This document shows positions 1 through 29,955 of a stretch of 64,000 nucleotides of DNA, piece after piece. Every line of letters starts with the position of its first letter. The stretch's first letter is position 1. This DNA is from Octopus vulgaris (lineage: Eukaryota). The stretch lies in the NCBI GenBank assembly GCA_951406725.2, contig OX597826.1, positions 63,736,001 through 63,800,000 on the forward strand. The letters are read 5' to 3'. Under the pieces are notes generated by a model, which made no database searches, was not told the origin of the DNA, and saw only the letters and a list, made by a program, of their open reading frames with translations. A program made the translations under genes and the position numbers.

Positions 1-824
1 AGAAAACAGAATTTCTCAGAAGCATGATGTTCTCTCATTTCAGTCATCACAAAAATTTATGAAAATGGGAGAAGCACTGCAAAACAAAGACACACCACAT
101 GGCAGTACTATGTCACTCTGTGATGTCAGTCAGTAGACTGATGCCTGAGGTTTGTATCAAGTAGCTTCTAGCAGCAGAAACCTTAAGAACAATGGGCTTA
201 TCCTAAAGAGAATATTTCTGATTACTTTTGGGTACCTCCTCATATTTTGCTGGCACTGTTGGGGTGAAAGAATCACCAAGTTAATTTCAGTAATTTACTA
301 GCAGACATCCTTTGAAATCTAATGCAAATGGAAGGTGTATTTAGTATTAACAATGTTACCTTGCTGAATACTATGCCTTTGGATATTCTCATGTCTCATT
401 GCTAGCACAAATGATAAAATACTTTCCAGGTCTCCCTCTAACTGAACTTATATGCCTTGTAGGGGTAAAAACAACCTGCACCAACTTGAAATGTATATTC
501 CTTCAGTGGTACATACAAACATCTTGGTCAGTTACTAACATGGAATTCATGGAGAAGTAAAATTAAAGTGACATATAGAAACTGGTTATAAATAAATAAA
601 CACAGTTTTAAAAAACCAACAAGGGAGCCTATCTGGTCACTTAAACTTACTAGAAATAGATAGATTGTGTTTTTACAAATAAGAATGTATTAGACAGCAG
701 GTCTGCTTTATCAGAGCTAACCTGTTTCTGTCTCTTTGTCACACTGTAACCTTTCATTATCTAACACAAGATCTCCTCCTCCAGTGCCTTCTCTCCTCTC
801 AAAATTCCTTGTCATGCAAGCTAC

Positions 825-1022
825 TTGGTGACCCTGCCAGTGCTGGTGCCACGTAAAAAGCATCCAGACCAAGCTGTAAAGTGGTAGGCATTTGAAAGGG
901 CATCCAGCCATAAAAACTATGCCAAAACAGACACAGAAGTTTGGTGCAGTCTTCTGCCTGGCCAGCTCCTGTCAAACCGTCCAACCCATGCCAGCATAGA
1001 AAGCAGTTGTTAAATGATGATG
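825..1022 (+). mobile_element. RTE-associated non-autonomous retroposon ((GAT)n-tailed family), diverged
   Basis: gggcatccagcc...ccgtccaacccatgccagcat...gttaaatgatgatg, shared with many copies in the window. Confidence 0.75.
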
Positions 1023-1565
1023 AAATTGCAATGAAAAAACAATTTGTTATAAAAAGGGAAAGTTTGTCAAACAAATATGTGAATATAATTCAAAAAATTT
1101 TAATAAATAGCTAATATTTTAATTCTTTGCATGTCCAACAAGCAACACAGTAACTGCTTCTGAAAAAGGAAGTCTATTCAAATTTATGTATAAAATGGAT
1201 TACTGAATCAACATGGAAAAAGTTGTCCTTTCGTTTTTGTTTTTTAACAATCAACATCTATTTCTGATTATTTCTCTCACCCTCTTCGAATGAAAAATAA
1301 ACAACCCTGAAATAGAATAATCTTTTCCTACCATTATCTAATCTCAGTTTTATGGTCCAGATTTGTTGTGTAAATATTGTCAAAACATCTTCTAACACAC
1401 CCCAACCCACTACCTAACTCATAATCTCAACATTATTTACTAAAAAAAACACTAATTTTTCCCCTTCATTAACATTTTAATGAAGAATTCTAAATCCTCG
1501 CAAAGAACTGTTCAACTTTTATTGCTCCCTAGCACCAACAAACTCAGCATGAAAATAGCCATCAG

Positions 1566-1581
1566 TGTTGCCATGGCAACA
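1566..1581. promoter_or_regulatory. Perfect palindromic RFX X-box (tGTTGCCATGGCAACa)
   Basis: Exact canonical 14-mer within a 16-bp palindrome in sequence with no recognisable repeat. Confidence 0.55.
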
Positions 1582-2077
1582 TGATATTAAAGAAGCAATC
1601 AGCAAAACTTTTAATGCTCTTGTTGTGTTTTACATAATTCTATAATCTTTGGTTAGCAATGATAAATAAAAAAAAAAAGAAAGAAACAGGTACTCTAATA
1701 TATCTTGAAAACTGGTAATTCAAAATAAGCTGAAAAAACAGAAAACTACTTAAATTAACTGACATGGTACTGTTACTATTGTCGTTATAATGAGGCATTA
1801 ATGAGATTTTTAGATGTTTCCACTTGAAAAAATCTTGAAAAATGTTATTCAAAGAATTCTGATATCTGTTCTGTTCTTGAGAGAAAGATTCAATCAAAAC
1901 AGTGCAGATTATTAGCAAACTATACTTTGGTTTTCCTAGTAATATGGAAGCTTCTATAGAGTCACGCAACCTGGTCAATGCTGTTCTTAAACCAGCCCCA
2001 CTCTCTTCATGCAGTTCCTCACTGGTCTGAAAACTGGCATTGCATGAAATAGGTCTGCATGGAAAGAGCTACAGAGT

Positions 2078-2111
2078 GCTTACCTGACAACAGAAAATAA
2101 CTTTCAGTTAG
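2078..2111 (-). other. Candidate recursive splice site: branch point CTAAC, ttattttctgttgtCAG|GTAAGC
   Basis: On the sense strand of the MTMR intron. Branch A is 24 nt upstream of the junction at 2084/2083, and the acceptor is immediately followed by a consensus donor. Confidence 0.5.
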
Positions 2112-2464
2112 TTCAGTGCAATACCACCAATCCCTTCTCTCTTAATTTTTATCTGTCCTACTGCAAACTAAGAATTATTATCATCATTATCACCCACTAT
2201 TATTACTATCTCAAGTACTAGGAAATACAGGGCAGATTATCTAGTTTCCAGGGCATATAAATGACCAGGATAACAACATTCTTCCTGTATGGAACACCAG
2301 TCTGTCACAGGGTTACTTATTTACAGCTGAGTGGATTGGAGCAACATGAAATCAAGCATTTTTCTCAAAATGGAAACAAACACCATTCCACCATATGATT
2401 GGCTTGAAAAATTGCTAAGACATTAAAACATATTTTTTTTTAACATATCTATATTTTAGAGATG

Positions 2465-2792
2465 GGGAATTATGTATATTATTTACATTTGACGGATATT
2501 TGTCCTCATCTTGTTTGTTGTTAACACAACATTTTGGCTGATGTACTCTCCAGCCTTCATCAGGTATTAGATTTACAAGCCCCAAAATTCACTCCATAAT
2601 TGCCCATGGACATATGGTTTAGTGGTTAAAAGCACGGGCTACTAACTCCAAGATTCTGAGTTTGATTTCAAGCAGTGACCCTAATAATAATAATAACATT
2701 GGAAAAACACTGATGAAGGCTGGAGAGTACATCAGCTGAAATGTTGTGTTAACAACAAACAAGATGAAGACAAATATCCGTCAAATGTAAAT
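2465..2792. mobile_element. Penelope-like remnant: 83-bp inverted arms flanking a tRNA-like head
   Basis: 2481-2563 is the reverse complement of 2710-2792 with 3 mismatches. Arms carry a CTGATGA-A-GGCTG..CAGCY-GAAA motif. A/B-box-like head at about 2608-2680. Confidence 0.6.
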
Positions 2793-2895
2793 GAAACCAA
2801 TGGTAGCCTTAATACACAAATAAAGAAATTTTATCCACCATTGCAGTGCTGAGCACTCATTCTTGTTCAACATTTACATATATATGATGATGATG

Positions 2896-2931
<36 letters not shown>

Positions 2932-4289
2932 TACACACAGACCAATAAAACCAGTACCAAACTTTAAAAAAGTATTATGATTAGTTTATTCAAATAAAAC
3001 CCTTCAAGGCATTAGATAAAATTCTCAACTCATATTGAAAATATTACTTAATGGACAAATGTATATATCTGTTTATGTGAGTATTGGGTATTCACGCATT
3101 CCATCATCAATATTGTGTATGTATGTGTGTATTTTACAGTAATGTACATCGATAAAAGATGCAAACATTTGAAAACTGGTGCAGTATTTGTCCTTCCCGA
3201 GTTACACAGATGCTTTATAAATGCAGTGAAACATTGATTGGTCTGTTGGAAACTTGTAACTAAGGAATTTATTGTCCCACACACAAGAAAAAAAAATGTA
3301 GGTATGATTGTTTGGTTTAGAAGCACACTATGAAGCCATGTAATTTTGGGTTCAGTCTGACTTCACACACTTCGGGAAAGTGGCTTCTGCTATAGCCCCA
3401 GGGCAAACCAATGCCTGAAATTGAAACTGAGTGAAAGCCCATCAAGTTTGGTACTTGTTTTATTGGTCTCTTTTACTGAACTGCTACGTTACAGAGACAT
3501 AAACAAACAGCACCAGTTGTTAAATGCAACAAGTACAAAGATATTAGTGTGTGTGTGTGTGTGAGTGTGTGTTTGTGTGTGTGTGTGTGGCCACACAGTT
3601 TCTGTCAACCAAAATTCACTCACAAGGCATCAGTCAACTAGGGTTGTAGTAGAGGACACAATGCTTTGGAACTGAACTCAAAACTATGTAGTTACAAAAT
3701 GAGCTGATGGATGATAACATCAGTCTGCAGAGGCATTTTCAAGTTGATAAATACGCAATTTTCATCAGTAGTGAAAAGAAAATACTAAATGCTCTATATA
3801 ATTACAGATACAAACCAAGAGGAAATAATAGAAGTTACTCTCAAGAAAATAAAGAATCCATCACTTACTTAACACAGAAATAAGAATCAAAAACTGACAA
3901 CTGATATTTTCTAGCTATAGCCAACTTCATATACAATAACTGAAAAGTCACGCCAAAATGTCACATCATATCAATCATTTAAGTTTGAACAGTCAATTAG
4001 GAATTCAAGTTCAAATATTTGAAGTCATATATGAGATGTGGAAAATAGAGTGTCGTCTCAAGAAGCAAAATAGAAATACATACTCACAGACACACACATG
4101 TTATATAACCATATGAGGCACAGGGGCGGCGAGCCACAGACAGTTGTGTGGATAAGAAGCTTGTTTCCCATCTATGAGCTCTTTGGGTTCGGTTCCACTG
4201 CAGAGCATCTTGGCAAGTGCCTTCTACTATAGCCCAGAGCTGACCAATGCCCTGTGAGTTAATTTGTTAGATGAATGTTGTATAAAAGT

Positions 4290-4625
4290 TAGAAAGTGAA
4301 ATTTGTAAAGTAAAAGTATTATGTTTAGATATGGTCTTTGTCAGACACACAGAGAAGAGGAGAAGACAGGAGAAAAGAGGAGAAATAGCCCCCCCCCCCC
4401 CCCCAGCACATAAGTAACTCATATTTGATCTCTGAATAACTATAAGTGAAAGAGAGGTAATTATGGTTTTTAATGACAGGAGAGTGCTTATATATGTGTG
4501 TGTGTGTGTGTGATACATAGATAGATAGATATAGATATATATAGTAGAATAATAAAAAAAAGTTCTTGGTACAGTATAAGTATTATGTTTTAGATATGGT
4601 CTTTGTCAGACACACAGAGAAAAGT
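4290..4625 (-). mobile_element. Penelope-like partial tandem repeat remnant
   Basis: Direct repeat aagtattatgttt(t)agatatggtctttgtcagacacacagagaa at about 4314 and about 4578, separated by a microsatellite. Confidence 0.4.
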
Positions 4626-5504
4626 CCAGAGTTATTCTAATGAGTTTTGAGCTTTCCAATAGCCGTTTTCAAACTGAAATTCTGTAGGAGAAAGGGCTAT
4701 AGCAGAAGACACTTGCCCAAGATGCCATGCAGTGGACATTTTTGGAACCAGTGTGGTATGGTATGCCCTTAGCAAGCTACTCCATACCACACGGCACACT
4801 CATCTACATGCCTATATACACATACATACACACATTCACATACAGTATGGCCACAGCCTCAGGACTGGAACATATAAAAGAATGTACAGGTGTCAAGCGA
4901 CTTCTTTAATTAATGAAAACATTATCTCAATACAGAGAAACTGTTTTTCTCAGATGACTGCACAGACCTCAAGCACAAAGGACAAACCAACTGCTTTAAC
5001 ATATTCACATCACTAACGGAGCTCAAATATTTACACTAATTCTGCTGCTATATCTTTGGCTGAATGAGTTTAGAAAAGTAGTCTATGTAGTATCAAATCT
5101 ACTAGAATTTAGAGGTTAGTAGAGGTTATAGTGGTGGCGGATAATTGAGAATAGTGACCTAGTTACCTACACTTGGAAGACAATAGGGAGAATGTAGTCT
5201 TCAATCATCCAAAATTAAATCTTTTGGGAGTTGTAGCTGTCTTCTAGAGAAAGGTGATTAATTAATTAATATCATGACAACCTACTAGACTAAGTACTGG
5301 AACCTTATATCCCCCACCCCCCACACTTTGTCTACACCAAAGAGTAAGGCTTGGGGTGATAAAAGAAAGAAGGATAACCAGAGCAAATAACACTTATTTT
5401 CATTGTCATCTTAAAGGGGAAGATAAGGAAATTAGGGGTGAAAGATAAGTGCAAAGAATAAGTGAAGTAGCGCTGGTGCAACTTAATATATATTTATATA
5501 ACTC

Positions 5505-5826
5505 ATTGAAAGAGCACATCAGTAGGGAGGTCATCAGACAGAAGTCCGGCGTGAGGGATGTCATCATAGAATATACATGCAGCAAGTTTAGATAGGCTAG
5601 ACACATCGCTCGGTTCACAAATAATCGGTGAACCCACGCAGTTGTCAAGTGCTATCCGCACGAGCGGAAACGACCACTTGGAAGGCCTCCACAATGGTTG
5701 AGTTAGGAATTTAGGAGGGCAATTGGGACCACATGGATGAGGAAGGTGCGATCCAGAGAGGAGTGGACAGTGTGCTGTGACAAGCAGTGTCAAATGGACG
5801 CCCAACAGACTGGTCAGTCAAGGTGA
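5505..5826 (+). mobile_element. RTE-clade LINE 3' fragment (decayed)
   Basis: Translates LKEHISREVIRQKSGVRDVI..KFR*ARHIARFTNNR*THAVVKCYPHERKRPLGRPP..WMRKVRSREEW, the RTE C-terminal WAGH..GRP pattern with stops at Trp positions. Confidence 0.85.
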
Positions 5827-5858
5827 TATATACACACACACACACACACACACATATA

Positions 5859-6009
5859 CAAGAGGTGCTGAAAAGTTCCTGGCTTTAAGGGTATCATAAA
5901 AGGCCTAGTTGGAGGCCCAACCTTCCAAGTTCTTTTACAAGGCTTAGAAAAACTGAAGGACCACTGCAATAAGTGTGTGAATCTGAGAGAACTTTCCAGC
6001 ACCCCCTTA
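5859..6009 (+). mobile_element. Mariner-derived MITE
   Basis: Terminal inverted repeats (gaggtgctgaaaagttc / gaactttccagcacccc) flanked by TA. Internal FYKGLEKLKDHCNKCVNLR-like mariner C-terminus with a frameshift. Confidence 0.75.
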
Positions 6010-6889
6010 TACACATACACACACACTTAAACACATCCATAAGTATATGACTTGCCACAGAGTTTCTGGCTACCAAATTCTAAAAGCAAGGTATTCATGA
6101 ACCCAAGGCTACAGTAGAGAAAACTTGCCAAATGTGCTGCACTCTGAGCCAGAACCTGAAACCATGTAGCTAAGAAGCAAATTCCTTAACCACACGGTCA
6201 TACCTGTTCTGTGCATGTGAAGAATATCTATGTGTAATTGTGAATAGCAACCTTATAAAATACAGTTTTGTTATTGATCACTTAATCCAGATAATGTTCG
6301 CGTAAACCAAAGGAAATGCAATTATTCATGATCATTCTAAATAGAGACACACGGACAGAGACACAAACACACGCAGAAACAAAGAGATGCACACACACAC
6401 ACATACACACATACACAAACGCACTAACACATTTGAAAAATACATTTAGCTTCAGTGAAAATTGTAACTTACCAAATAAATATCATTATTGAATTCAACA
6501 GGAGATTAAAAATAAAAAAAAACCAAACCATATTGAACAAACTTCTAATTTAAATACGAATCATATCATTCTTATCTGTCATTTTGACAGTATCCTTCCT
6601 TCCTACCTTCCACTAACACACAATCAATGACGTGTAAATATATACTCACGTTGCTGCACGCAACAGTGAGTTCAATTATTCAGTGATGATTGTAGTACAA
6701 GAGGGAAAAATCCCTGATGCATAAATAATCTCATAATGGTTGAGTTTTACACAGAAGCATTTGAACAATCTTAGTCATAGAAGCTACAGCCAAGCAGTAT
6801 GAAATGATTTCAGTAACTATAGATCCAGTATAGCTATAAGTGATTTCTCAACCTGTTTCTGTCTTGTTCTGAGGATAACTTTTGCGTTT

Positions 6890-7305
6890 ACCTTTTATCT
6901 TTGACATGTTTGAGTCTTTGGAATGTGGCCATGCTGGGGCACAGTCTTGAAAGGTTTTAGTCAAACAAACTGACCCCAATACTTTTTTTGTTTGTTTTTT
7001 AAAATCTGGTACTTATTGTATTGGTGTCTTTTGGTGAAACTGCTAAGTTACAGGGATGTAAACAAACCAACACCAAGTGTCAAGTAGTGGTGGTGGAGGA
7101 GAAGGAGCATGCACAAACACCACACACATATATACATGCATATATAGATACAGTGAGCTTCCACACAGTTTCCATCAACCAAATTCACTCACAAGCCATT
7201 GATAGGCCTTGAGCTATAGTAGAAGACACTTGCCCAAGATGCCACGCAGTGGGATTGAACCCAAAATCATGTGGTTGCAAAGCAAGCATTTTAACCACAT
7301 AGCCA
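6890..7305 (-). mobile_element. tRNA-derived SINE (family A), near full length, diverged
   Basis: Same head, body and tail as the copy at 13286-13700. Confidence 0.8.
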
Positions 7306-7633
7306 TTTTTAGATCAAACAATCTTAAATCTGGACACATGGCTCATTGCTATAACGACAACAACAGCAAGCTTATCCTTGATTCCACTACTGTATATACT
7401 CATTTAAGCTGAAGATTATCTTATCTTCTACATATATGTAAATATACTGATAATAATTTTTTAATAATTTTATAATACTTTGTGGTTTAGAGGCTTTTTG
7501 TATATTTTTGAACATTGAACATGAATTAAATGGTGGTTTTTATTCTTGCTATCATCATCAAGTTACTACAATTAGATGCACTCAATGACATGAAGACAGT
7601 ATATTCAATATCTGTAGATTTACTCATAAGAAA

Positions 7634-8203
7634 TCAAATCAAATCAAACCAAAATAGATGAACATCAATGGAATTTGTATCCTTGTGGTACCAGTGCCGG
7701 TGGCACATAAGAAAACCATCCGAACGTGACCGTAGCCAGTACCGCATCGACTGGCCTCCGTGCTGAGGGCACGTAACAAACACCATCCGAGCGTGGCCGT
7801 TCGCCAGCCTCGTCTGGCACCTGTGTCGGTGACACTTAAGAAAACACCATCCGAGCGTGGCCGTCTGCCAGCCTTGTCTGGCACCTGTGTCGGTGACACA
7901 TAAAAAAAAACACCATCCGAGCGTGGCCGTCTGCCAGCCTCGTCTGGCACCTGTGTCGGTGGCACATAAAAACACCATCCGAGCGTGGCCGTCTGCCAGT
8001 CTCGTCTGGCACCTGTGTTGGTGGCACATAAAATCACCCACTACACTCTCGGAGTGGTTGGCGTTAGGAAGGGCATCCAGCTGTAGAAACACTGCCAGAT
8101 CTGACTGGCCTGGTGCAGCCTTCGGGCTTGCCAGATCCCAGTTGAACCGTCCAACCCATGCTAGCATGGAAAGCGGACGTTAAACGATGATGATGAAGAT
8201 GAT
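7634..8203 (+). mobile_element. RTE-associated retroposon with an internal ~60-bp tandem array and (GAT)n tail
   Basis: About 5 units of caccatccgagcgtggccgtctgccagcctcgtctggcacctgtgtcggtggcac, then ggagtggttggcgttaggaagggcatccagctgtagaaac...gttaaacgatgatgatg. Confidence 0.85.
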
Positions 8204-9135
8204 AATAATACCATGCATTAATCTTGCCTGGGACCACAGTCTAGCCTTTAATGTGCAGGTTTCTGTTTTTCTTGTTTTTTTTTAAAGGTAGTATTGTAAT
8301 CATTTAAGCAAGTCTCATCAAGTTTGTAGCTTGGATATTGAGAAATTTAATGGTGAAAACAGAGAAGTTGGTAAGGCACAGTTGTAGGAAGATACCATTA
8401 TCAGAGAATAGGTTGGATGCCATTATCATCATCATAATCTTTACTTCCTTGGCCAAACTAACCCATACTGGTATGGGTTAGTTGGCTCAGGACTGCTCTC
8501 CTACATGGGTCAAAGGACCAATTTGCTCATAAGTTTCATTTTCAGTTGGGTTGCACTTTACAGAATTTTACTGGGTGCAGTTTTCCCTGGCACCAGTACT
8601 ATAGAATTTTCCAAATAACTGATAAGTGATCTCAATCCTACACTTAACAGAATACACACGACACATTGTTTCATGATAACTGGTGGCAATCCAGTACTAA
8701 TTTTATCAACTAGTGACTGGCAGTGTTGGCCATAGTAACATTTGAACATACAACACATCAGATACAAACTAAACAAGTTTGCCAAGCTAATACTCATTAA
8801 AAAAATATATACATTAAAGCTAATTTTAGAGTTAACTACAAGCACCTGGTAACAGTAAATAACAAATTAGAAATTCTATTCTGTTTGAGCACAACTTTTT
8901 ACTGAACAACAGAAATAATAAAACAAAATCTTAATTTTATTGTTTCAATTAACAAAGAGCTGACAAATAATATTTCATGAAAGGAATATATGTGTGTGTA
9001 TATGTGCATGTGTGCATGTGTGAAACTACACAAACGTCTGAATATAAATTTCAGAAACAGTTAAGATACTCTAACTGGAAGCATGTTTCGTACAATAAAT
9101 ATTGCAGAAACCTAATCCATTTGTTTAGATGTATT

Positions 9136-9166
<31 letters not shown>

Positions 9167-10613
9167 GTATTAAAAGAAAATTAGTGACAGGAATCTAAAA
9201 GACAAACAAATGATGAATTATAGTCAATCGGAAATGTCCATGGAACATGTGTAGTGAAAGCAAGACGCTATAAAGGTTTCATTTTACTCTCTCAAATGCA
9301 ACTGCAACTAGCTCAACTAGAAATGCAAGCTGGCTTACATGATGATGATGATGATGATGACAATGGATATAGAAGTGGCATGTTTTGAACAGTATAACAG
9401 GTTAAACTAGAAACATGAACTGGCCCATATGATGGTGATGGTAGTGATAGTGGTGGTGATGGTGGTAGTGGCAGTTATGGCGATGCAAAGTATTTTCAGT
9501 AATAAAATACCATATCCCAATGATGATGGTCTTATAATGTGAAGAATGACGTGAATGGAGGTAACATGATTCCGAGTGAAATATTTTCATCCCTTTGTGA
9601 TTTGATCAAAACAAGTACCAGCGATACACTAGAATCAATGCCAACTAACAAAACTTGATCATTAAAAAGCAACAAGAAATAGTACCAGAGGTTTCACATG
9701 GTCACTATTTTGTGCTTCTCCTTTTAGCGTTAACAAATAAGAAGAAATATAAAGACATGCCGAGTTTACTGTAAAATAAAATTTGTTTACATTTTCAACA
9801 AGGCTTTATAAAAACCTTTGTAACAACCACATTCAACATATCTTATTGAAATATCATAACTTGTGCCTGTATTCTTGTACTGAGACATTCAGTTCTACTC
9901 CACTAAATCTACTTGAGAGAACAAGTTGCTGTTGGCTGCAGTCTTTGATTGTGGAATTACTGACAAATAACATTCAATTGCCATCTTAATTAACTAAAAC
10001 CAGGTACCAAAGATGGACCAGCACATGGTGTAAACCAGCTGAGTGACTTTCAAAGCTTCGTATTTGCAATCAGATCATATCTTATCCTGGAGCAGAAACT
10101 AACCATCAATCTGTTCAAATTTATTTGAAAATAAATTATTTTACATTTTAGAAATTAAATGATTTATTGATTTCTAATGTTAACAAAGGTCCGCAACATT
10201 TACAGGAGAGAGTTGTAGATTACTGATTCAGCCTACAGTGAAATATCTGGAATTTGTTTAATTAAAATTGAGAAGATTTTGAGTAAAAGGCAAACAAACA
10301 CAGAGAAATTATAGTATTTAGTCCATCTCTCTAACATTCCTGCTATGCATTCACTATCATCAATCAATTAAAAACTAATCATTAAAAGCTATCATCTCCA
10401 TCTTACTCTCACTTTCTCATGTATATAATCATCATCATTGTGTTAATGGTCTACCTTCCCATGAGTCAGATGGAAGTTGTTGTAACAGATTTCTACGACC
10501 AGATGCCCTTCCATTTGCCAGCTCTCACCTGTTTACAAACAAGGTATTACTTCCCCACGACAAGACATGAATAATAATGTTTGTACAACAGTGATGCTCA
10601 TTTACATCTTGTC

Positions 10614-10894
10614 TGGCCACCACAGTCCCCAGATCTCAATATTATTGAACATTTATGGTGCATTTTAGAAAAAACAAGTAAGGAGTTGATATCCTCCACT
10701 ATCTTCACAACAAGAACTGGAGACTGTTTTAGCTGAAGAATGGACAAAAATTCCTTTGGAAACAAGTCAAACTTTGTACGAGTCCATACCTCAAAGAATT
10801 CAAGCTGTAATTACTGTCAAAGGTGGTTCTACCCCATATTAAAATAAATTTGTTTGAAATTTTAAGGTGTTTCCATTATTTTGTCCAACTCATG
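10614..10894 (+). mobile_element. Tc1-family transposase 3' fragment with right end
   Basis: WPPQSPDLNIIEHLWCILE..EEWTKIPLE..LYESIPQRIQAVITVKGGSTPY* (SPDLN.IE motif), with a frameshift and a stop; ends at TA. Confidence 0.9.
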
Positions 10895-10904
10895 TATATA
10901 TATA

Positions 10905-11095
10905 GGGGGAGAGTTCACGAAAAAACAAAAGACAAAGACAGGTGGTGTACAAAACAAACAGATGTGTTAGTATATCGCTCAGGAATCAAAAAGGTTTTTT
11001 ACGTTTCGAGCCTACACTCTTCTACAGAAAGGGACACAGAAAAAAACAAGGAGAGAAAAAAAATGTGTGTAGTGGCTACCAATCTATCATGGCTA
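10905..11095 (-). mobile_element. Penelope-like terminal repeat remnant next to (TA)n
   Basis: Minus strand ctgtagaaGAGTgtagGCTCgaaacgt hammerhead-like motif; related motif at about 23190-23225. Confidence 0.45.
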
Positions 11096-13285
11096 AACTA
11101 CAAGTAGAAAAAACAAAGGTGAGCACTGTCTCCTTTCAGTGTCTTAGTCTATTTGTCTCTCATATTACAAAGCCTTCTAATAATTTTTCACTTATAATCT
11201 TATATGTGGTATACATCACATGATTAGATATATCTTTCTCGTTTTCCAAGTACAGTTGTTTATATTAAAAAATAGAAATCTAATTGTAATTCTCTACTAT
11301 GAAACAAAAGAGAGAAAGACATCACTGTTTCTGGAATAAATGCAATACCATTACTGGAGTACAACAGAACTTAAGAGTAAGCATTAATGAAATAATCTTC
11401 TAGCAAAACAGTATAAAATGTGAGTGTGTATGGATGTACATAAGTGAATGTATGTGTTTGTCTGTGAGTGTATATACATGTGCAATGAGATTAAATGGAA
11501 TCACGTGCAAATACTATAAATTACATCTTTATTAAAATTCACTTGATTGAAAGAGATTAGCTTTTCGTGTATCAGTAAACACATGCAATCCCACCAGTTT
11601 CAACAGAGCTTAGAATTGAGTGCATGCACGTACATCTATAGTTTGAGGTGGAGTTTGAATATTGTATCATCATTATTTTAATGCTCACCCTTACATGCTT
11701 GCATGGATCAAATGAAATTTATTGAGGCTGATTTTCAATGGCTGGATGGCCTTCTATACCTGTTTATACAAGGTAATATTTTCCCATAACCAGACACATT
11801 TTTCACAGAATATTGGAAATGAAAGGCATTCATTTACAACAATCACATGATGAGAAATTAAGGAGACACACACACACACACATATATACGTATATGATGA
11901 CAGGCTTCTTTCAGGTTCTGTCTATGAAATCTGCTCACAAGGCTTTGGTCGGCCTAAGGCTATAGTAGAAGACACTTGCCCAGGGTACCAGGAAGTGAGA
12001 GTGAACCTGAAACCATGTGGCTGGGGAGTAAACTTCTTAACCACAGAACCCTGCCTGCACCTACAAGTGTACTTTTTTTTACATTTAGTCAAGAAGAGAA
12101 GCACTTCTGCTTTTTCCGCCTTTTTTTAAGACTCTATAGACAGGTGAGATGAAGGATGAAAGTTATCTTCAAACAGGAGTCGAAACCCAGATGCTTACAA
12201 CACAGTAAAACTCTACCAAATATACTTAAGGACAGGTAATGGTATGAAAATAGAAGACAGATTACATCTTCCACCCAAGAATTCAAAAAGTAAACAACCA
12301 GAAGAAATATCACAATGCATCTCACCTGATGTATGAATAATTGTGCCAAGTCACAACCCTGGACAATTCTAAGAGAATAAAAAGCAAAGTTGATGTTGGC
12401 AGAATTTGAACTCAGAATGCAGAAAGCCAGAAAAAATATTCTTTTCTACTCTAGGCATGAGCCCTGAAATTTTGGGGCAGGGGGCCAGTCAATTAGATCA
12501 ACCCCAGTATGCAACTGGTACCTAATTTATTGACCCCGAAAGGATGAAATGCAAAGTCAACCTTGACGGAGTTTGAACTCAGAACGTAAAAGCCAGAACA
12601 TTGCAAAGCAATATGTCCTACACTCTAATGGTTCTGCCAATTTGCTATTTATATACATCATGCTCATCATCATCATCATTTTAATGCCCTCTTTACTATG
12701 CTTGCATGGGTCAGACAGTATTTGCTGAGGCAGATATTCTATGGCTGAATGCCTTTCCTGTCACTAACCCTCACCTGTTTTCAAGCAAGATAATATTGCC
12801 CAGGTCTGTCAAACAATAAATAGTCCAAGTTACAAATCCATTTTTTCTTTTCATTGTTGTACAATGATCATCCAATATGTCAAGAGATCTCAAAAAGCTT
12901 GAACGTGCTTTCAGTTGACTGAAAACATACAACGGTGCCTGTACTTGATTAAAAAAGATGTTGTTTTGTTTACAGTCAGGAAATGCATGTCAAAACAAAC
13001 TAAGGGAAAATATGAAATCCTTTTCACACACACATATTGATATTTAGTACACTATACACCTGTAAAGGCAAAGTTAATTTGATGGCAGGTGTAAGCAAGT
13101 ATACAGCACTAAAAACTGATCACTATAAACGAATCATCTCTGTAGGTTGTTTGGCAAAAATTATGGTATCCTCATCTGTCATTTATGACAGGAAGGTCCA
13201 ACACACACACGTGTGTGTATGTGTCTACTAATTTCACTCACAAAGTATTGGTCATTTCACAGAATGTTAACCAATAATGCTCATA

Positions 13286-13453
13286 GGCGCAGGAATGGCT
13301 GTGTAAGTAGCTTGCTAACCAACCACATGGTTCCGGGTTCAGTCCCACTGCATGGCATCTTGGGCAAGTGTCTTCTGCTATAGCCCCAGGCCGACCAATG
13401 CCTTGTGAGTGGATTTGGTAGACGGAAACTGAAAGAAGCCTGTCGTATATATG

Positions 13454-13493
<40 letters not shown>

Positions 13494-13700
13494 TGTGTCT
13501 GTGTTTGTCCCCCTAGCATTGCTTGACAACCGATGCTGGTGTGTTTACGTCCCCGTTACTTAGTGGTTCGGCAAAAGAGACTGATAGAATAAGTACTGGG
13601 CTTACAAAAGAATAAGTCCTGGGGTCGATTTGCTCAACTAAAGGCGGTGCTCCAGCATGGCCGCAGTCAAATGACTGAAACAAGTAAAAGAGTAAAGAGT
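13286..13700 (+). mobile_element. tRNA-derived SINE (family A), full length and little diverged
   Basis: A/B-box head (tggctgtg..ggttcagtccc), body, central (TA)n(TG)n linker and 3' domain ending gtaaaagagtaaagag. Many partial copies (about 3290-3700, 4115, 4690, 11890, 17965, 20215, 23360, 33990, 44450, 45165). Confidence 0.9.
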
Positions 13701-15934
13701 ATACAGTGGGATTGATGGCTAACATCGAACCCCTTACCATATTGCTCCAAAGCTAACTGCTTAACTACCCAGCCATATACAATTCCTAAGAATGGTTTAT
13801 ACTAATATGAATACAGCTTTCATAGTCCTGTGACTTAACAGCTATCAGTGACAGTAAATTATGCTGATAAAACCACCACAAAACAAGAGAATATAGAAGG
13901 ATGAAATGCAAAAAGAGGAGATGATAATAATAACTCCATAATATGAAAGACGTACATAAAATATGAAAACTGTTAATGCGAACTAACAAATTCTTAACCA
14001 GTTAACATATTTTTGTCCAATCAGAGACTTGCATAATATCCATAATATATATATAGCTATGTTCAAGTGCCAATTGAACTGGTATAATTCAAACAGTTTG
14101 GTACATCCAGACAGCAGTCATTAACAATAAAAGTAAATTTTCTTCATTTTGAAAGTCTGTAGCTTCCCAAGGTGTTTGCATCATCATAATCTAATGTCTG
14201 TTTTCCATATTGGCATGGGTTTGGATGGTCTGACAGGAGGAAAGAGCAAGCTACAAGGTTGTGCTGAGCTCCAGTGTCAGCTGTAGCATTGGTTCTATGC
14301 CTGGATGTCCTTCCTAATATGAACCACCTTGCAGTGTGTATTGGGGGCTTTTGCATGGTACCAGCATTAGTGAGATTGCCAAGTAAATTGAAAGACAGAA
14401 AAAGAACAGGGGGGGAAAAAGGTAGAAACCTCCTACTAAGTGGGGAGAGTATTTGAGAAGGGAAGGTGGACTTGCACCAGGTGTTGAAAGGCAAAAGTAT
14501 GATAGAGAGACCAGCAGTGGTGAATTAAACTACAGAGGCATGATATGTAAATAACCTATAGAGGACTGTTTGTTATTAGAGCAGTTCTTTGGAAAATTTC
14601 TCCCCTCCCTCTTTCTTTTGTAGTGCTTAAAACTAAAGTAATGTTACATTTAAATAGCAATGGAATGTGAAAGTGATTGGAAATGCTACATTGTGATGGT
14701 TAGCTTCCAACAAACTGATCAATATTACACGTTTGATTTCTAGTTTGAACCATTTTCACACAATTTGCTGCCTGTACCAGTGGTTTTTCATTTCATAATC
14801 AACAGAAATATCTCTCTTCTGCTTAATGCTCTGGAAAATTTAAGATAAAGAACAGACCTTTGGATTCTTGCGGCATAGATTACTTTTCGGTTTTTCATCT
14901 GCTTATGTATCTAAAGTAAAAGTGTGTCCCCATATGTGTGTGTACGTATATTTGTAGTTGTACACATACACAATTATAAGTAAAAACAAAGGTTAAAATG
15001 TATGTTTGTGTGTGTACGTACATATGTAATTATACACACACATGCTTATAAGTGAAAAATAAAGTATTAAATGTATATATGTGTGTATGAATGTGCGTTT
15101 GTGTTCTCTCTTTCATAAATTCCTTTTGTCCATTTTGTGTATTATCCATGCTTGCAGAAATCTAATACAAATTATTGAGGTAGTCTTTTTAACAGTCATA
15201 TGCCCTTCCTGTCACTCAAGCCTAACCTGTTTTTCTGAAAAGGGATCTCTTATACCACATGTTTTCATAAGTGCAGATGTAGTGGATGGTTTGTTGACAG
15301 GGAAATGTAAACAAACATTACTGTTTGGAGCTCAGTACCTATTTTCATGCAAAGCACAGAATGTAAACATTTACACACACAAACACAGACATATGCTTAC
15401 AAAAATGCTTAGCTATCACTTGTATGTGAATATGACTGTGAAGCTTGTACCATGCTTTCATATGATCTTTTAGGTGCCCGTGTAGTCAGAAGTAGATGGC
15501 CATCTCTTTGATATTCTTACTTTTGACTCAGTGAAACATGAAGGCTGTGACAGGTGGACAGAGAGGGCATTGCACCAGCAGTCAGTTGGTACTCATTTCC
15601 AGCAGAGTAGACTGGAGCAACATGAAGAGCCTTGCTGAAGGTCATGATGCATTGCCTTGTCCAGGAATTGAACTGGTTAAATCACATTCATGAACTCGGT
15701 ACCTAATTACTACACTTTGTGCATAATGGGGTTCTAGGCAAACCAGGCAATGAACTCAGCAGCACTCGAGCATGAAATTGGGTAACAAAGTACTCAGAGG
15801 AATACTGAAGAAACATCCTTCCTGGAATGTACTGTGTGATTTCTTGCAGATCAATACCTCAATATTTATTCTTATCATTAGTATTATTAAGGCACTAGTT
15901 TCAGCTGTACATATTCTAAAATTGGAACTATACA

Positions 15935-16730
15935 GAAGATTATTATTATTATTATTATTATTATTCAAAAAACAAAATGTTTAGCAGCATTTCATTCATC
16001 TTCATGTTCTGAGTTCAAATTCTACTGAGATCAACTTTGCCTTTCATTCTTTCAGGGTCAATAAATTAAGTACCAGTTAAACACTGGGGTTGATGTAATC
16101 AACTATCTCCCTTCCCCAAAATTTCAGGCCTTGTGTCTATAGTAGAAAGGATTATTATTATCATCATCATTATTATTATTATTAATTATTATTATTATTA
16201 AGGCGGTGAGCTGGCAGAATCATTAGCAAGCCAGGTGAAATGCTTAGCAGTATTTCCTTGTCTTTATGTACAGAGTTCAAATTCCGCCAAGGTTGACTTG
16301 GCCTTTCATCCTTTCAGGGTCGACGATAAATTAAGTTGCATCCGTCCAACCCATGCTAGCATGGAAAATGGGTATTAAACGATGATGATGATGATGATGA
16401 TGATGATGACTGGGGTCAATCTAATCAGCTGCCCCCACCCCCTGCCACATCAAAATTTCAGGCCTTATGCCTATAGCGGAAAGGATTATTATTGTTATTA
16501 TATACACAAAGGTCATGTGTTGGCAGAACTGTTGGCATGCTAGGCAAAATGCTTAACAGCGTTTCATCTTTCATCACATTCTGAATTCAAATTCCACTAA
16601 ACTCAACTTTGCGTTTCATCCTTACAGGATCAACTGAATGAGTGCCAGTTGCATACAGGGGTTCATGTAAATGACTAGCCCCCTCCCCACAAATTTCAGG
16701 CCTTGTGCCTATAGTAGAAAAGGTTATTAT
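15935..16730 (+). mobile_element. Head-to-tail array of three family-B SINEs separated by (TTA)n, with a nested (GAT)n-tailed fragment at about 16340-16409
   Basis: Repeated ggcggtgagctggcagaa..ttctgagttcaaattcc..gcctttcatcctttcagggtcgataaattaagtaccag..tagaaaggattatt. Confidence 0.85.
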
Positions 16731-17494
16731 ATGCAGACACACGACGGGCTGTGTATTGCTTCCTTCTACCAAATTCAATCGCAAATCATTGGGTGGCCCA
16801 GAGCTATAGTAGAAGACATTTGCCTAAGGTTCCACATAATGGAACTGAGCCTGGAACCACATGCTTGAGAAGTGAACTTCTTAACCTCACAGCTGTGCCT
16901 GCCATATAACTGTTTTAGTCAGAAGGGACAGGATGGTGGTCATAACTCTTTAAGACCCACAAACTATGCTGCAGTAGAGAAGGTATTTCCAGAGCAGAGA
17001 ACTAATTTCAGTTTTCCAGTTTTTATCAAGCTTCACATTCTATTCTATGAAATAAAAAATAAAAAATGGCAATAATCTTAATTTATGTTCTAGTATAAAT
17101 CTTTATTTTTCAAAATGCCATTTTCAGCTTCCTTTGATTTAATGGTTTAAAGAATAAGGAAATACAGTCGTTGCTCTTTGCACAAAGATGACAGAAGACA
17201 TTAATTTTAAAAAAAGATTCCTAGTTTTAAACATACATAAAAAATCTTTTTATAAAATATACGTACAGCACAAAGATAATTTTAATAGCTTCACAGACTG
17301 ATTTCAAAAGGACAGGATGAATTTATCTGCTGAAAGAAAGAAGCATTTTGATGCATATTGCAATTGTTCCAAGTAAAGAAATAACTCTTTACATTTATGG
17401 CACTTGTGGTAATAAGGGACTAGTATAACAACTTTCATTTTGTACTGAATGATCATTTTTAACACGTCCACACATGTATATGCATGCACACAGT

Positions 17495-17790
17495 GAAGGC
17501 ACATGGCTTAGTGGTTAGGTGTACCCAGCTCTTGATCAATAAGGCTGTGAGTTTGATACCCAACGGTGCACTGTGTCCTTGAGCAAGACATTTTATTTCA
17601 CATTGTTCTGGTCCACTCAGCTGGCAAAAATGAGTAGTATCTATATTTCAAAGGGTCATTCTGTGTCACACTCAATCTCCCTAAGAACTACGTTAAGGCT
17701 ACCCATGTTTGTGGAGAGGTCAGCCACTTGCATCTTAATTTCACAAGCAAGCTGCTTCGTTGATCAGATCAACTGGAACACTATAGTTGT
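17495..17790 (+). mobile_element. tRNA-derived SINE (family D-type head)
   Basis: ggcacatggcttagtggttagg..gtgtccttgagcaagaca..gtccactcagctggcaaaaatgagta. Confidence 0.7.
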
Positions 17791-19152
17791 AACTACCATG
17801 CACACACACACACACATGCAAGCACACACACATGCAAGCACACACACACACACACACACACACGCACATAAGAGTGCCTAACAACACACTACTACCAGAA
17901 CCATGATTTGGGTATGCATACACACGCACACTCACAGCAATAACAAAATTTAAAAAAACTTATAGGAGTGGTTGTGTGGTAAATAGCTTGCTTACCAACC
18001 ACATGGTTCCGGGTTCAGTCCCACTGTGTGGTACTTTGGGCAAGTGTCTAGGACTGGATGCCCTTTCTGCCACCAACCCTCACCTGTTTCCATGCATGAT
18101 AATATTTCCCCATGGCCAGACATGTTTTCCACAGAAAACTGGAAACAAGCGACACTGCTTGTATAACAGTGATGCTTGTTTACAACCATCAGGTGATGTC
18201 AAGACTTGGATACACACAAAACACACATATGTAAACAAATGCCTGTGATAAAATATGAATAAGTTGAGCACTGATAGATACGCTACTTGCTCTTTGGGTC
18301 ACTGCAGTGAATTTACAGTATTTACACAAACTAAACTTTGCTGAGCCAACAAGAGAGTTTCTACATGGTTATTTGATCTGCTAGAAATAGCAGCCAAATC
18401 TTGAATCATACTCATCCATCGTAAAAGAAAGAAAGAAAGATTAGAAAAATAGTCTAAGCTGTTTCTGAAAGGACAAGACTATCATGGCTAGACTGCCTTT
18501 GATCATAGGTCCACTCAATTAGGATTAACATGGGACTAAAACTACTAATCCTTGTGTCTTCAGTAGTAGCTTAGAAGTTGATTTGTTATTCTAATTAAGT
18601 AAATGGATTACAGCAGAAGCTCATGTCATGAAGGAATAGTTAGATATTGATGAAACAGTATAAGGTAAAGTTGTTTCACCTCATTTATGAAAAACAAAAA
18701 ATACCCCCCCCCCCCCCAAAAAAAAACAAACAGCGTGCCTTATATTTTAAAAAAGCCTTAGATTCTCTCCTTTGTAAGGATTTACAGATAAAACACTCTT
18801 TTAATGAAAATCACTTATCAAAAACAAAACATGCCTTACCTAATATTCAACCTTTGTATAAACAATTAACAAAAAAAAAACAATTAAAGAATACAGTATA
18901 TTAATTTACTGGTTTTGCTTAATCTTTCCAACTAGATACTTCAGGCAGTGTTTTAGCAGGTGTGTGTGTGTGTGTGTGTGTGTGTGTTCGTTTGTCCCCT
19001 ACTATTGCTTGACAACTGGTGTTGATCTGCTTATGTTTGACATAGCAGTTTGACATAAGAGTCCAGTTAAAAAAAAAAAATTAAGCAATGGGGTCAATTC
19101 ATTTGGTCAAAACTCATCAAAGAGGTGCCCCAGCATGGGCACAGTCCAATGG

Positions 19153-19378
19153 CTGAAACAAATAAAAAAACAATAAATGAAAGATATTGTTATACCTCAA
19201 GCAAGGCATTGAAGTTTTCTAAGAACAATTAGCTGGAGTGAGAGTGAGACTGTTAATGATGATGATGATGACGAACTGGTCTCACTCTCACTCCAGCTAA
19301 TTGTTCTTCGAGAATTTCAATGCCTTGTTCAGAGCATAACAATATCTTTCCTCTATCTTTTTTTTTTTTTTGTTTCAG
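19153..19378. repeat. Long fold-back inverted repeat with a 30-bp perfect inner stem
   Basis: 19221-19250 pairs perfectly with 19279-19308; imperfect pairing extends to about 19153/19378; 28-nt loop containing (GAT)n. Confidence 0.9.
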
Positions 19379-20620
19379 GAGCATTAAACAATTTAGAAAA
19401 TACAGAGACAACTAAAGGCTTTCTGACAGAGAAACCAAATTATCTCATACTTTAAGATAAATAATGGATGATTGAATAAATGTATGAAAGCCTGAATGAA
19501 AACAAAAAATCAATTTTTGTTCTCCTTCAAATCAAACCAACAGTGAAGTTGATCAACTCTTTAACAATTTTGCTACTATAATTCTAGTGATACACGAACT
19601 ACGAATTCCAATTAATTTTTTAAATAATGAAGAATTTGATGGAATTTAGCGAAATAACATTTTCAATTACCAATTTGGTGTTTGAAAACAGAAGGCTTAA
19701 ATATAGACACCTTATTACAAGAAGTTTTCTATCACAGAACCAGAGGGATTTTTAGATAGCTTGGTATCAAAAGGATTACGATAACAGATAATATAATTCT
19801 TTACATAATTGCTTTCTTTTTTTCATTTTTTGTCCTTTTTTCCAATAGAGCTCACAGCAAAAGACTAGATAGAACATTTAAATCACAGCCTGCATGCTGT
19901 TAAAATTATTTCAATTATCCCAACAGCTCTTTTAACCAATCTATCATTTTGCTTTCACTTCCATGCTATGTTTACTTTAACCCTTGGTCTACCAGAGAAA
20001 ATGTATGTCACTAATCACCAACTTGGTCCAATGGACCCAATATTTTTCTTGTAATTAAATTTTATTCAAACTACCACTATTTCTTAGCTACATTATATAT
20101 GCTATCAGGTGAATGAAAAATTGTTTCTCACAAATTTTAATAAAAAAAATACAGCTTCCAGAATAAAGTATAAATTTTAAAAATTACAAAAATACAGAAT
20201 TACTTGCACACATATGACGGACATCTTTCAGCTTCTATCTACTAAATCAACTTTGATCAGTCCAGGGCTATAGTAAAAAAAGACTTGTCCAAGGTGCCAC
20301 ACAATGGGACTGAAATCAAAGCAATGTGGTTGGGAAGCAAATTTCTTAATCATACAGCCACACCTGCAGTTTTGCCTGATGAACAAAATTTTACCAAGAT
20401 TCTCCAGCAAGGTGATGAAAGGCAGTGTCCATAGTTGTACTCTGAGCCAATGTAGAGGAAAACAGTGTCTATAGACTATAACTTAGTTAAGTCAGATAAA
20501 TATGATTAATGTAGAGAAACCTGAAATTTTTCCTCCTAAGACCAAAATATATACTAGGAGAGAGAGAAAGAGTTTCAAGGAATGCAAGTCTTGAGAGAGA
20601 GAGTTTTGAGAAAATGGTTT

Positions 20621-20659
20621 GCTGGCTATAGACACACTTTCTGTGTGTCTATAGCCAGC
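20621..20659. repeat. Perfect 17-bp stem, 5-nt loop hairpin
   Basis: gctggctatagacacac-tttct-gtgtgtctatagccagc. Confidence 0.9.
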
Positions 20660-21063
20660 TGGAGGAGGTGTCCTCCTGGGGCTACAAACTACAGTAGCAT
20701 CCACCCTTAGGGGTTAGCCATATTTAAATGGCAAATATACGTCACAATGTGTTGTAGCTACTGTTTATAACTCGCTCTGAGATTTATTATTGGTTAGTTC
20801 TGAGTTAAGTAGATAAAACACAGCTGGATTAAAAGAAGGAGACAGATGGTAATACAAATAGATTTAGTAAGTGATGGTAAATACAGTCCAGCAAGTTCAG
20901 AGAAGTAAATGTAGTAGTAGCTATAGTAGGAGCAGTAGCAGGCACTACAGAGAGAGTAAAGATTAATAATGGGTGAGATTAAAAGCATTATTGTGAGTAA
21001 GGCTTTACTTTTTAGGTGGAGAGACATGTTTTGTTTATGATGTGATCCAGAATGTGTGTTGTG

Positions 21064-21168
21064 GGAGTACTACCACAGCTGTATGAGTAATACACCAAGG
21101 AGTACTGCTACAGATGCATGAGTAATACTCCAAGGAGTGCTTCTATGGATATAGGAGAATTACTCCAG
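21064..21168. repeat. 35-bp minisatellite, three diverged units
   Basis: Units resembling ggagtactaccacagctgtatgagtaatacaccaa. Confidence 0.7.
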
Positions 21169-22419
21169 TGGTCCAGTGTATGTTGAACTTTTGCCTTGTT
21201 TAGTATCAAAAGCTGTTTCTATTGTGGTATAGGTTGGAGTAAGTGTCTGTGAACATGACTCTGTGTGTGTGCATGTACATGAACAAGAGTGTATTTCAGC
21301 ATGTAAGTAAGTATGTGAGTGTGAGTATGTGTGAACACCAAAGTGCGATTGTTAACTATAATGGACAAAAATACAAGCAATGTCTGATTATAATCATATT
21401 AGATGGCATAATACATGAGTGTATATATTTATATACATATACACACGTGTGTGTGTGTGTGTGTGTGTGCATAAGAGAGAGAGAGAGAGAGAGCTTTTAT
21501 ATTTGATATTCTGTAGTATTTGGAAATAGGGTGTGCCAAGACAAAATGACTGTTTCAGATTGAAGCACCAAGTCAGCAGTTTTGAGGAGAAGTGTATGTG
21601 TGTGGGATGAGTAAGTCATTACCATCAATCCCAGTTTTTGACTGGCACTTTATTTTATCAACCCTGTAAGGCCGAAAAGCAATGTAGCCCTGGGCAGGAT
21701 TTGACAAAACTTTAACCATTCATGATGTAGACATACAGACACGATTGTCTGCCACATGGTTAATACATAACAACATTGCTCAATTGGTGAATATATTAAC
21801 AGGAAAAACTATCCATCATCACCATCTTTAGACTTTTCAGATTTTATAGGATTAATATATCAAACAGTGAGATGTTTATGCATTTCTAGGTTTTACTTAC
21901 TGTTAGATCTAATGAGCTTTAGCACCAAGAAGGTAGAGTGTAACATGCGAGGAGGCAAAGTCTTTAGAGTTTCATCCTAATAGGCTTACGACCAAGAAGT
22001 AACGAGAGGAAAGCGGTGGTGGTTTGACAAATCCAATGAAAATCAGTGACTTATAGCACATACACAGATTGAGAAGATTAGGTAACAACCACAAGTAAAT
22101 AAACAACTCAACAACAGTGTTATTTTGCAAGGAAACTTGTCTTAGACTGGAAACTTTTAACATTTTGGCATTGGAAAATATAGAAAGCAAAGAATATACA
22201 TTAACTGTCTACAATTTGATACCTCTTTTTCCATATAATTTTAATCCAATATATATGTGTGTGTGCATGTGTGTGTGCGCGTGTGTATGAGGATGTAAGT
22301 GGGATGTGCGTGTGTGTGTGTATAGATTAGAGACACACACACACAGAGTGCACCAAAAGCCAAGCAACTGAATTTCGTATTTGAAAATCGAATTTCAGTC
22401 ATCAAACATCCAGTCAAAA

Positions 22420-22600
22420 TTGATTGGAAAGGCAATGTCAACATCCATAGAAAGCTACTAACACACTTCCAATTCACAGATGGTATCAAGCCCATTGCAG
22501 GAACCACAGATAAGTTGTAAACTATGCTGACAGAACTGGACATGCAGAGTTTAGCAGTAGACCTCAAAATATATCACATGAGAACAAGATGCATGTGGTC
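22420..22600 (+). mobile_element. Decayed RTE-type reverse transcriptase fragment
   Basis: WKGNVNIHRKLLTHFQFTDGIKPIAGTTDKL*TMLTELDMQSLAVDLKI..RTRCM resembles the G.NI.G..L.HLRFADD..LQ.ML.EL...GL.I region. Confidence 0.7.
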
Positions 22601-22849
22601 TAAAAAAACATAGCAACAAGGCTTAAATAGTGATAAGGAGGAACAACGAAATTGAGGAGGTGAAGGAAAATGTGAAGTTTGGGTAAAGATATTTCCCTAT
22701 GGCCAGACATGTTTTTGCAGAATATTGGAAATGAATGACATTCATTTGCTACAATGATGCAATGTCAAGACAAACACAGAGAGAGAGAGAGAGAAAGAGA
22801 TTGATACATCTATACATATACACACACATATATATGTATATTTTTTTTT

Positions 22850-23071
22850 TGCATCCTTTTAAATCCTAACCAGGCTCATGGGCCGGTTTCCCAGTTTCAA
22901 TGATGCCAGTCCATCGCAGTGTTACTCACTTTTGCCAGCTGAGTGGACTGGAGCAATGTGAAATGAAGTGTTTTGCTCAAGAACACAATGCGTCACCCGG
23001 TCCAGGAATCAAAACCACAATCTTACGATCATGATGCTGACACCCTAACCACTAAGCCACGTGCCTCCACA
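22850..23071 (-). mobile_element. tRNA-derived SINE (family D)
   Basis: Reverse complement gtggaggcacgtggcttagtggttagggtg..gatggactggc. Further copies at about 38425-38665, 46750-46935, 28760-28905, 42400-42690 and 50005-50278. Confidence 0.8.
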
Positions 23072-23267
23072 TATCTATGTATGTAGGCAAAACAAAAACA
23101 GGAAAAACAACAAAAGTTAAAAGGACATACCCAGTGAATATATCAGGTCAACACTCAGAGAAAGTTTAAGATGGAAAAAAAAAAGGGGTGTGGCGTTTCG
23201 AGCATGACTCTCTGTCAGAAAGAGGAAAAAAGTTCAGAGAGAAGGAAAAGACTAGTCCGAGAAAAGC

Positions 23268-23332
<65 letters not shown>

Positions 23333-23711
23333 ACAGGCTTCAAGTATCCAAAGTCAACCACAGTCATTCCAACCGAAGTCATTCACAAGACTGTGGTTGA
23401 CCTGGAGCTATAGTAGAAGACACTTGCCCACAATACCATGCAGTTGAACTGAACCTGAAACTTCTTAACCACACACACACACACACTTGCATATATGTAT
23501 GTGCATATATATAGTATTAATAAAACAGGTCGAAACATGTGTTGGACCCAATAAAGTCTATTACACATTCCCTCTCCTATTTTATTAATACTGTTACCCC
23601 AACTGCCACTAACGAAGTTCCTGCAGTTAATCTATGGATAACAACAGGTAATCGAAACTGTGCCGGTGCTTCACTCATCATCCATTTATACATTTTGTAC
23701 AATTTCTCCAC

Positions 23712-23788
<77 letters not shown>

Positions 23789-23913: not shown

Positions 23914-23948
<35 letters not shown>

Positions 23949-25425: not shown

Positions 25426-25478
<53 letters not shown>

Positions 25479-25737: not shown

Positions 25738-25739
25738 TG

Positions 25740-29919: not shown

Positions 29920-29955
<36 letters not shown>

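Follow-up and report, generated by a model that had tools for sequence, protein, structure and literature searches.

How does the octopus remove a first intron of some 144 kb, and could it be doing so in steps? Recursive splicing has been shown in flies and mammals, and an earlier note on a stretch of Octopus vulgaris DNA (64,000 nucleotides, the whole of which we call the window) proposed that a motif at positions 2078..2111 is a recursive, or ratchet, splice site in the first intron of an MTMR gene, thereby raising the idea of ratchet points in cephalopods. The locus poses two questions, one about this particular site and one about the octopus genome at large.

The MTMR6/7/8 gene and its first intron

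The host gene is MTMR6/7/8, transcribed from the minus strand: searches with the myotubularin and PH-GRAM families placed its coding exons to the left of the window, and among database proteins Octopus MTMR6/8 isoforms come closest. When mapped across 200 kb of sequence, the gene comprises 13 downstream exons and three alternative phase-0 first exons. The features that matter here are as follows.

52574..52597, minus strand: exon 1a, coding part MEFIRTSK, phase 0 (matches database isoforms P0124 and P0127)
32542..32595, minus strand: exon 1b, an alternative first exon coding for 18 amino acids, phase 0 (matches P0123, P0126 and P0128)
G000:C13:63705348-63705322 (L015:9322-9348), minus strand: exon 1c, a third coding first exon, MFLQVEEKK (found in database isoforms)
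1..52573, minus strand: part of intron 1, which runs on for a further 91.9 kb beyond the left edge of the window and ends at exon 2 (G000:C13:63644109)

Exon 1b also matches P0132, a decapodiform-like transcript protein. Exon 1c is outside the window, 30.7 kb to its left and downstream of the flagged site, and among the database isoforms P0129 has its initial methionine in exon 3. Intron 1 measures 144,464 nt when counted from exon 1a and 124,432 nt when counted from exon 1b, and the flagged site is 50,490 nt past the 1a donor, 30,458 nt past the 1b donor and 93,974 nt before exon 2. The gene, the sense strand, the long intron and the phase-0 first exons ending at 52574 and 32542 were all given correctly in the earlier note; its figure of more than 50 kb for the intron was right as to great length and well short of the actual size. 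Exon 2, whose placement to the right of 2111 had been named as fatal to the proposal, maps to the left of the site. No exon from the flagged site occurs in the 15 cluster members listed (10 octopod and five related isoforms, in three clusters). T exceeds A on the gene's sense strand in 25 of 25 10-kb bins (G000:C13:63550000-63790000), so this skew is usable as a rough strand marker in the octopus genome.

Two further observations concern the first exons. Gastropods and bivalves also have an N-terminus of the exon 1b type (MGN...), which makes the alternative promoters look old. In Mytilus, five MTMR6 isoforms (P0018, P0134, P0137, P0138 and P0143) have an optional insert of nine amino acids at the exon 1/exon 2 junction, which may follow either first exon.

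Build and strength of the flagged motif

On the minus strand the motif reads actaac-tgaaag-ttattttctgttgtCAG|GTAAGC, with the AG at 2085-2084 and the GT at 2083-2082, and the proposed layout (CTAAC at 2111-2107, CAG|GTAAGC at 2086-2078) is confirmed. Its parts and surroundings are these.

2107..2111, minus strand: CTAAC, branch-point-like in sequence, with the branch A at 2108 (-25)
2101..2102, minus strand: an AG between branch point and acceptor (-19/-18), leaving an AG-free zone of only 18 nt
2087..2100, minus strand: a short, G-interrupted pyrimidine tract, T-rich over its 14 nt (20-nt tract score -2.5)
2084..2086, minus strand: CAG, the putative acceptor and, by its sequence, also a consensus exon end for the adjoining donor
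2078..2083, minus strand: GTAAGC, a strong donor hexamer identical to that of the real exon 1b donor (score 6.95)
2023..2083, minus strand: candidate hidden exon of 61 nt, out of frame, which needs the weak donor at 2022
2017..2025, minus strand: weak downstream donor CCA|GTGAGG (+61), score 4.5, below all 15 real donors (5.8-11.9)
2084..2160, minus strand: possible pseudo-exon of 77 nt with the same CAG|GTAAGC donor as its 3' end, stops in all frames, and an upstream acceptor scoring 2.0

Joined in phase 0 to a first exon, the sequence does read GTA AGC ACT CTG TAG as had been stated, and the TAG at 2071-2069, the fifth codon within the candidate 61-nt hidden exon, would be a premature stop if the exon were retained. 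The description of the acceptor fared less evenly: the branch point is indeed well spaced, whereas the pyrimidine tract is poor, with 12 pyrimidines in 20 nt against 13-19 in the 13 real acceptors of the gene (a count in which two acceptor positions are off by one).

The splice-site scores used here were built from the 13 acceptors and 15 donors of this one gene, and are therefore in-sample and biased toward those acceptors. The donor half of the motif scores well (6.95 for the hexamer, against 3.4-9.0 for the 15 real donors, and 10.9 for CAG|GTAAGC in full, identical to the real 1b donor). The acceptor half depends on the length of tract considered: on 20 nt it scores -2.5, below all 13 real acceptors (0.3-12.4); on 14 nt it lies at their bottom edge (3.76 against 3.8-10.5); and on 10 nt it is mid-range. 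The 18-nt AG-free zone compares with 24-80 nt in the real acceptors. Downstream, no donor scoring at least 5 is present within +260, CCA|GTGAGG at +61 being the best, and a donor of at least 4.5 within +30..+115 is found at 27% of random intron positions. A CTAAC at -18..-40 occurs in none of the 13 real MTMR acceptors, and in two of 249 background acceptor-like AGs.

How often should such a site arise by chance? With the 14-nt tract, the window most favourable to the flagged site, 0.18 equal or better sites are expected on the sense strand of intron 1 and 0.12 on the antisense strand; with the 20-nt tract the figures are 0.97 and 0.44; and if an exact CTAAC, a feature chosen after the fact, is also required, they are 0.011 and 0.003. 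The rate of 0.12-0.18 per 144 kb agrees with PMC2773006, whose available part puts RP-like motifs on the antisense strand at a background of about 0.1 per 100 kb. On the 10- and 14-nt windows, of the 705 sense and 756 antisense AGGT in the gene's introns (238 kb, in a survey with three exon boundaries off by one), the flagged site alone reaches both of its scores. In intron 1, 141 GT sites score as high as the flagged GTAAGC hexamer. The octopus genome was surveyed in 423 windows, among which a few such coincidences are to be expected. The motif does not clearly exceed chance in intron 1. YAG|GTRAG is found there 13 times on the sense strand and seven times antisense; about six of the 13 are, by eye, copies of one repeat, and one is the real 1b donor. 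Copies of one interspersed repeat at 10531, 12777, 18086, 33856 and 49586 (minus strand) each have AG|GTGAG, and inflate naive counts of ratchet points.

The flagged site is single-copy: a 301-nt genome search (which skips common words) matched one place, and the location in a repeat that the earlier note had listed as counting against its proposal was not found. By eye, the site could also be rejected as a decayed copy of exon 1b. A 142-aa frame at 1643-2068 gave no Pfam match, and an Rfam search gave only a sub-threshold match, on a TA repeat.

Over 1500-2700, none of the listed runs is recorded as RNA. Assembled contigs from four of 24 sequencing runs were compared over 1000-2860. One contig from X1, a run guessed to be RNA, spans the flagged site unspliced (1906-2144, depth 2.2), but contigs of this kind can show only what is present, and the unspliced one does not count against splicing; X2 and X3 have no coverage there, and no joint or loose end falls at the site among the contig features listed for the four runs. 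An X7 contig, some 3-5% diverged, has 36 differences in 762 nt. Among the changes listed, two (2098 and 2104) are in the 34-nt element, no fewer than background, though for one relative only, and none affects AG|GTAAGC or CTAAC; at this divergence the 12-nt core would be expected to be unchanged anyway. In one contig each, X1 and X7 have G at -1 of the +61 donor (2023), which brings the donor score to 7.0-7.6, the X1 reading resting on that one contig of depth 2.2.

Nearby, at 2481-2792, is a MITE-like inverted repeat on the transcribed intron (83 nt, 96% complementary, arms 146 nt apart), which is very abundant in all four runs compared; hairpins of this kind could be editing substrates.

A strong-tract class in the octopus genome

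Does the octopus genome hold ratchet points at all? The test pattern TTTTTYNCAGGTAAGT had 41 genome matches (24 when reversed), and the composition-matched control TTTTTYNCAGGAATGT had 28 (13 reversed). Raw counts of this kind were rejected as a test for ratchet points, as the TAG and no-AG patterns proved commoner reversed than forward (28 against 63 and 25 against 80, respectively). The coupling of tract strength to a downstream donor was more informative. In the first set, a donor of at least 7.5 at +30..+100 was present at eight of 30 test loci and one of 28 controls. A replicate was then declared beforehand, with a window of +30..+115 and thresholds taken from the first set, on the remaining 11 CAG matches and all 28 TAG matches; here, six of 14 strong-tract sites had the donor, against a background of 6.2% (p=1e-4).

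A candidate-like pattern, TBBBBBBBBBBCAGGTAAGC, had 121 matches, and 88 of the 100 listed were read, those left out being nine copies of one repeated 20-mer, two tandem copies and the flagged site itself; eight more were dropped as the same repeat, leaving 80. Eight loci (L123, L124, L131, L132, L136, L142, L143 and L148) belong to a repeat family with a built-in tract and CAG|GTAAGC, several copies of which also have a donor at +38/+39, making it a possible mobile source of cryptic splice signals.

Across 149 YAG|GTAAG[TC] sites, the share with a strong donor at +30..+115 rises with tract score, from 4/82 (below 0) through 4/27 (0-5) and 5/15 (5-10) to 12/25 (at least 10), the donor background being 5.5-6.2% (Fisher p=2e-6 for the extreme classes). 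Class-level statistics such as these lend support to the notion of ratchet points in a cephalopod. The excess is modest for AG|GTAAGC sites with strong tracts (2/11 at scores of at least 5; 3/11 against a 17% background in a model-free count), and no donor excess was found at AG|GTATGT sites (1/16).

Sites combining CTAAC with CAG|GTAAG, a pattern that does not match the flagged site (which has G at -5), number 34 in the genome against nine when reversed. The GTAAGC set shares two of the 34; with two tandem copies dropped, 32 remain. Twelve of these have strong tracts (pyrimidine fraction behind the branch point 0.75-0.96, compared with 0.58 at the flagged site), 11 of the 12 lack an intervening AG, and three of the 12 have a donor in +30..+115; of the 16 with weak tracts, none has a downstream donor. 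As a practical filter, then, a weak-tract AG|GTAAG in the octopus genome carries no sign of function.

The strong-tract association also depends on the parts that a ratchet point would need. With the same prefix, the donor accompanies eight of 17 sites that have the AG and one of 25 that do not (p=0.0014), and a strong tract together with a donor is found at 10 of 41 CAG|GTAAGT sites and none of 28 CAG|GAATGT sites (p=0.004). A model-free donor count gave 14/29 against 2/26 (p=0.001). The strong donors cluster within 120 nt downstream of the class sites, where there are 15, as against 0-4 per 60-nt bin elsewhere. The 29 class sites are mutually unrelated beyond matches of 18-29 nt, and five have repeat matches in other loci. 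The 16 implied hidden exons are of 30-115 nt; 11 are not multiples of three, which is the chance share; 14 have a phase-0 stop, and eight have stops in all frames, one of which is supplied by GTAAG itself. Judged by the T-over-A skew, 15 of 17 class sites and 11 of 20 weak sites are on the T-rich strand, a group difference that is not significant (p=0.13). The loci concerned are the following.

L262-L278: candidate octopus ratchet points, strong-tract AG|GTAAG with a strong donor 30-115 nt further on (17 loci on 11 contigs)
L279-L298: weak-tract comparison sites (20 loci)

These DNA statistics make it probable that the octopus has a genome-wide class of fly-type ratchet points with non-coding hidden exons of 30-115 nt. 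None of the strong CTAAC sites is also among the 41, so that, on a back-of-envelope estimate, the class probably has hundreds of members. At such sites, by analogy with the fly as described in the available part of PMC8605326, the short non-coding exon would be recognised first and the upstream exon spliced to it, and the regenerated GTAAGT would then outcompete the donor of the hidden exon, with nothing of it remaining in the mRNA.

How does this compare with what is known elsewhere? In the accessible portions of PMC8605326 and PMC6110457, Drosophila ratchet points with RS-exons (Ubx, kuz and Bx) fuse an acceptor to a donor within a long intron, on its sense strand, and have an out-of-frame hidden exon about 50 nt long. 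The flagged motif matches this in its fused signals and its place, and has a candidate out-of-frame exon of 61 nt. The strong-tract class agrees in its implied hidden exons, which are of 30-115 nt, with a phase-0 stop in 14 of 16 and no bias to multiples of three. The fly sites, as presented there, rest on junction reads, saw-tooth coverage, conservation and mutants, whereas the octopus sites are known here from DNA alone; and, unlike the fly sites, the flagged octopus site is weak both in its acceptor and in the donor that lies downstream. Mammalian recursive sites, as far as covered in the available part of PMC8797253 and in the citation of Sibley 2015 in PMC8605326, are uncommon: AGGT sites that lie in very long introns and are accompanied by a cryptic exon, a build that the site here resembles. 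According to the same part of PMC8797253, real mammalian sites have higher 3' splice-site scores than other AGGT sites and were called from nuclear RNA; the flagged octopus site has no stronger acceptor, and was called from DNA.

The available part of PMC2773006 gives 2.2 RP sites per 100 kb for long introns of the fly, and a four- to eightfold sense enrichment of such sites in long introns of sea urchin, bee and beetle. The octopus raw counts (41 against 28 in the control) suggest a density far lower than that of the fly. The analysis described in that part counted motifs by strand on annotated introns, whereas the octopus test uses the coupling of tract strength to a downstream donor and needs no annotation. 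The 13 species that it names include no mollusc, and a literature search outside subscription papers and supplements found no paper on recursive splicing in cephalopods or other molluscs. If true, the class would extend to molluscs, as something new there, a mechanism of long-intron removal known from flies and mammals; and, as the octopus genome is of 2.8 Gb with introns of great length and the strong candidates are few, the question is directly testable.

The flagged site and a second site in intron 1

What, then, is the site at 2078..2111? It is probably not a ratchet point, since the weak-tract group has a donor rate at background (4/82, and 0/16 where CTAAC is present), and its tract score of -2.5, its pyrimidine fraction, its intervening AG and its want of a strong donor place it in that chance-like group. 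The claim that it is a recursive splice site is thus not upheld. Probably it is inert, a chance look-alike in a 144-kb intron that would mostly be passed over by the spliceosome. With no exon definition at this point, the donors of exons 1a and 1b would bypass it and join to exon 2, directly or by way of some better-built site. The flagged site alone matters little; the weight is carried by the class.

Some room, if not much, should be kept for a real but weak recursive site, in which CTAAC would offset the short tract, a 61-nt hidden exon (2083-2023) would be defined by the donor at 2022, and GTAAGC would splice on. We regard this as unlikely, keeping it in view on account of the sense location, the CTAAC and the variant donor. 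CTAAC at -25 and CAG|GTAAGC are on the sense strand of a 144-kb intron, the place to expect real sites; the DNA statistics point to such a class in this genome; the site ranks best on the short tract windows; CTAAC in such a position is rare by chance; the combination of CTAAC with CAG|GTAAG is enriched genome-wide; and the +61 donor is at a fly-like distance and scores 7.0-7.6 with the -1 G of X1 and X7. Against this must be set the missing donor excess of the weak-tract group, with or without CTAAC, the AG between branch point and acceptor, and the score of only 4.5 that the +61 donor has here, which over a quarter of random intron positions match. Moreover, if the -1 G is ancestral, the octopus genome has lost it, which would suggest little constraint.

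More improbable still is that AG|GTAAGC serves as an ordinary donor, at the end either of a rarely used non-coding cassette (2160-2084, 77 nt) or of a first exon, also non-coding, that is missing from the annotation. The full donor equals that of exon 1b, an acceptor-like site upstream yields the 77 nt, and the gene has three alternative first exons as well as an isoform starting in exon 3; but the upstream acceptor is weak, under the real acceptors, no in-frame start codon precedes a TAA seven codons upstream, and equally good GT sites abound in intron 1. We give least credence to occasional use of the acceptor for a poison or cryptic last exon with no recursive second step, for which the fifth-codon stop in the frame of both first exons would be apt, as acceptor and donor are both weak and the changes listed for the X7 contig give no conservation signal.

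If intron 1 has a stepping stone, a site near its midpoint is a better-built candidate.

G000:C13:63720271 (L013:4271; element L013:4227-4325), minus strand: second ratchet-like site, 15.7 kb left of the window

It is 17.8 kb further along the intron than the flagged site, and divides the intron into 68.3 and 76.2 kb. With a tract score of 11.4, an AG-free zone of 54, CTAAT at -29, AG|GTATGT and a GTAAGT at +45, it is the only site with both tract and donor scores of at least 3 on either strand of the gene's seven longest introns, and it too had a single match in the genome (in a search that skips common words). The chance expectation for a site of this type is 0.05-0.3 at round thresholds and 1.4 at the loosest. 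The 45-nt candidate hidden exon is open, in frame with exons 1a, 1b and 2, and holds an in-frame ATG. Since they keep the frame and include the ATG, these 45 nt could instead be a cassette exon or a fourth first exon. The AG|GTATGT donor type shows no class excess, and for this reason we hold only tentatively, and with rather more doubt than belief, that the second site may be a stepping stone of the 144-kb MTMR6/7/8 intron. By eye, the 45 nt bear only a slight resemblance to the Mytilus nine-amino-acid cassette at the exon 1/2 junction.

Elsewhere in the gene, a good tract with CAG|GTAAGA at L030:5182 (minus strand; G000:C13:63551182) lies 184 nt upstream of the second-last mapped coding exon; it is in a 1.8-kb intron with no downstream donor, and is perhaps an alternative acceptor.
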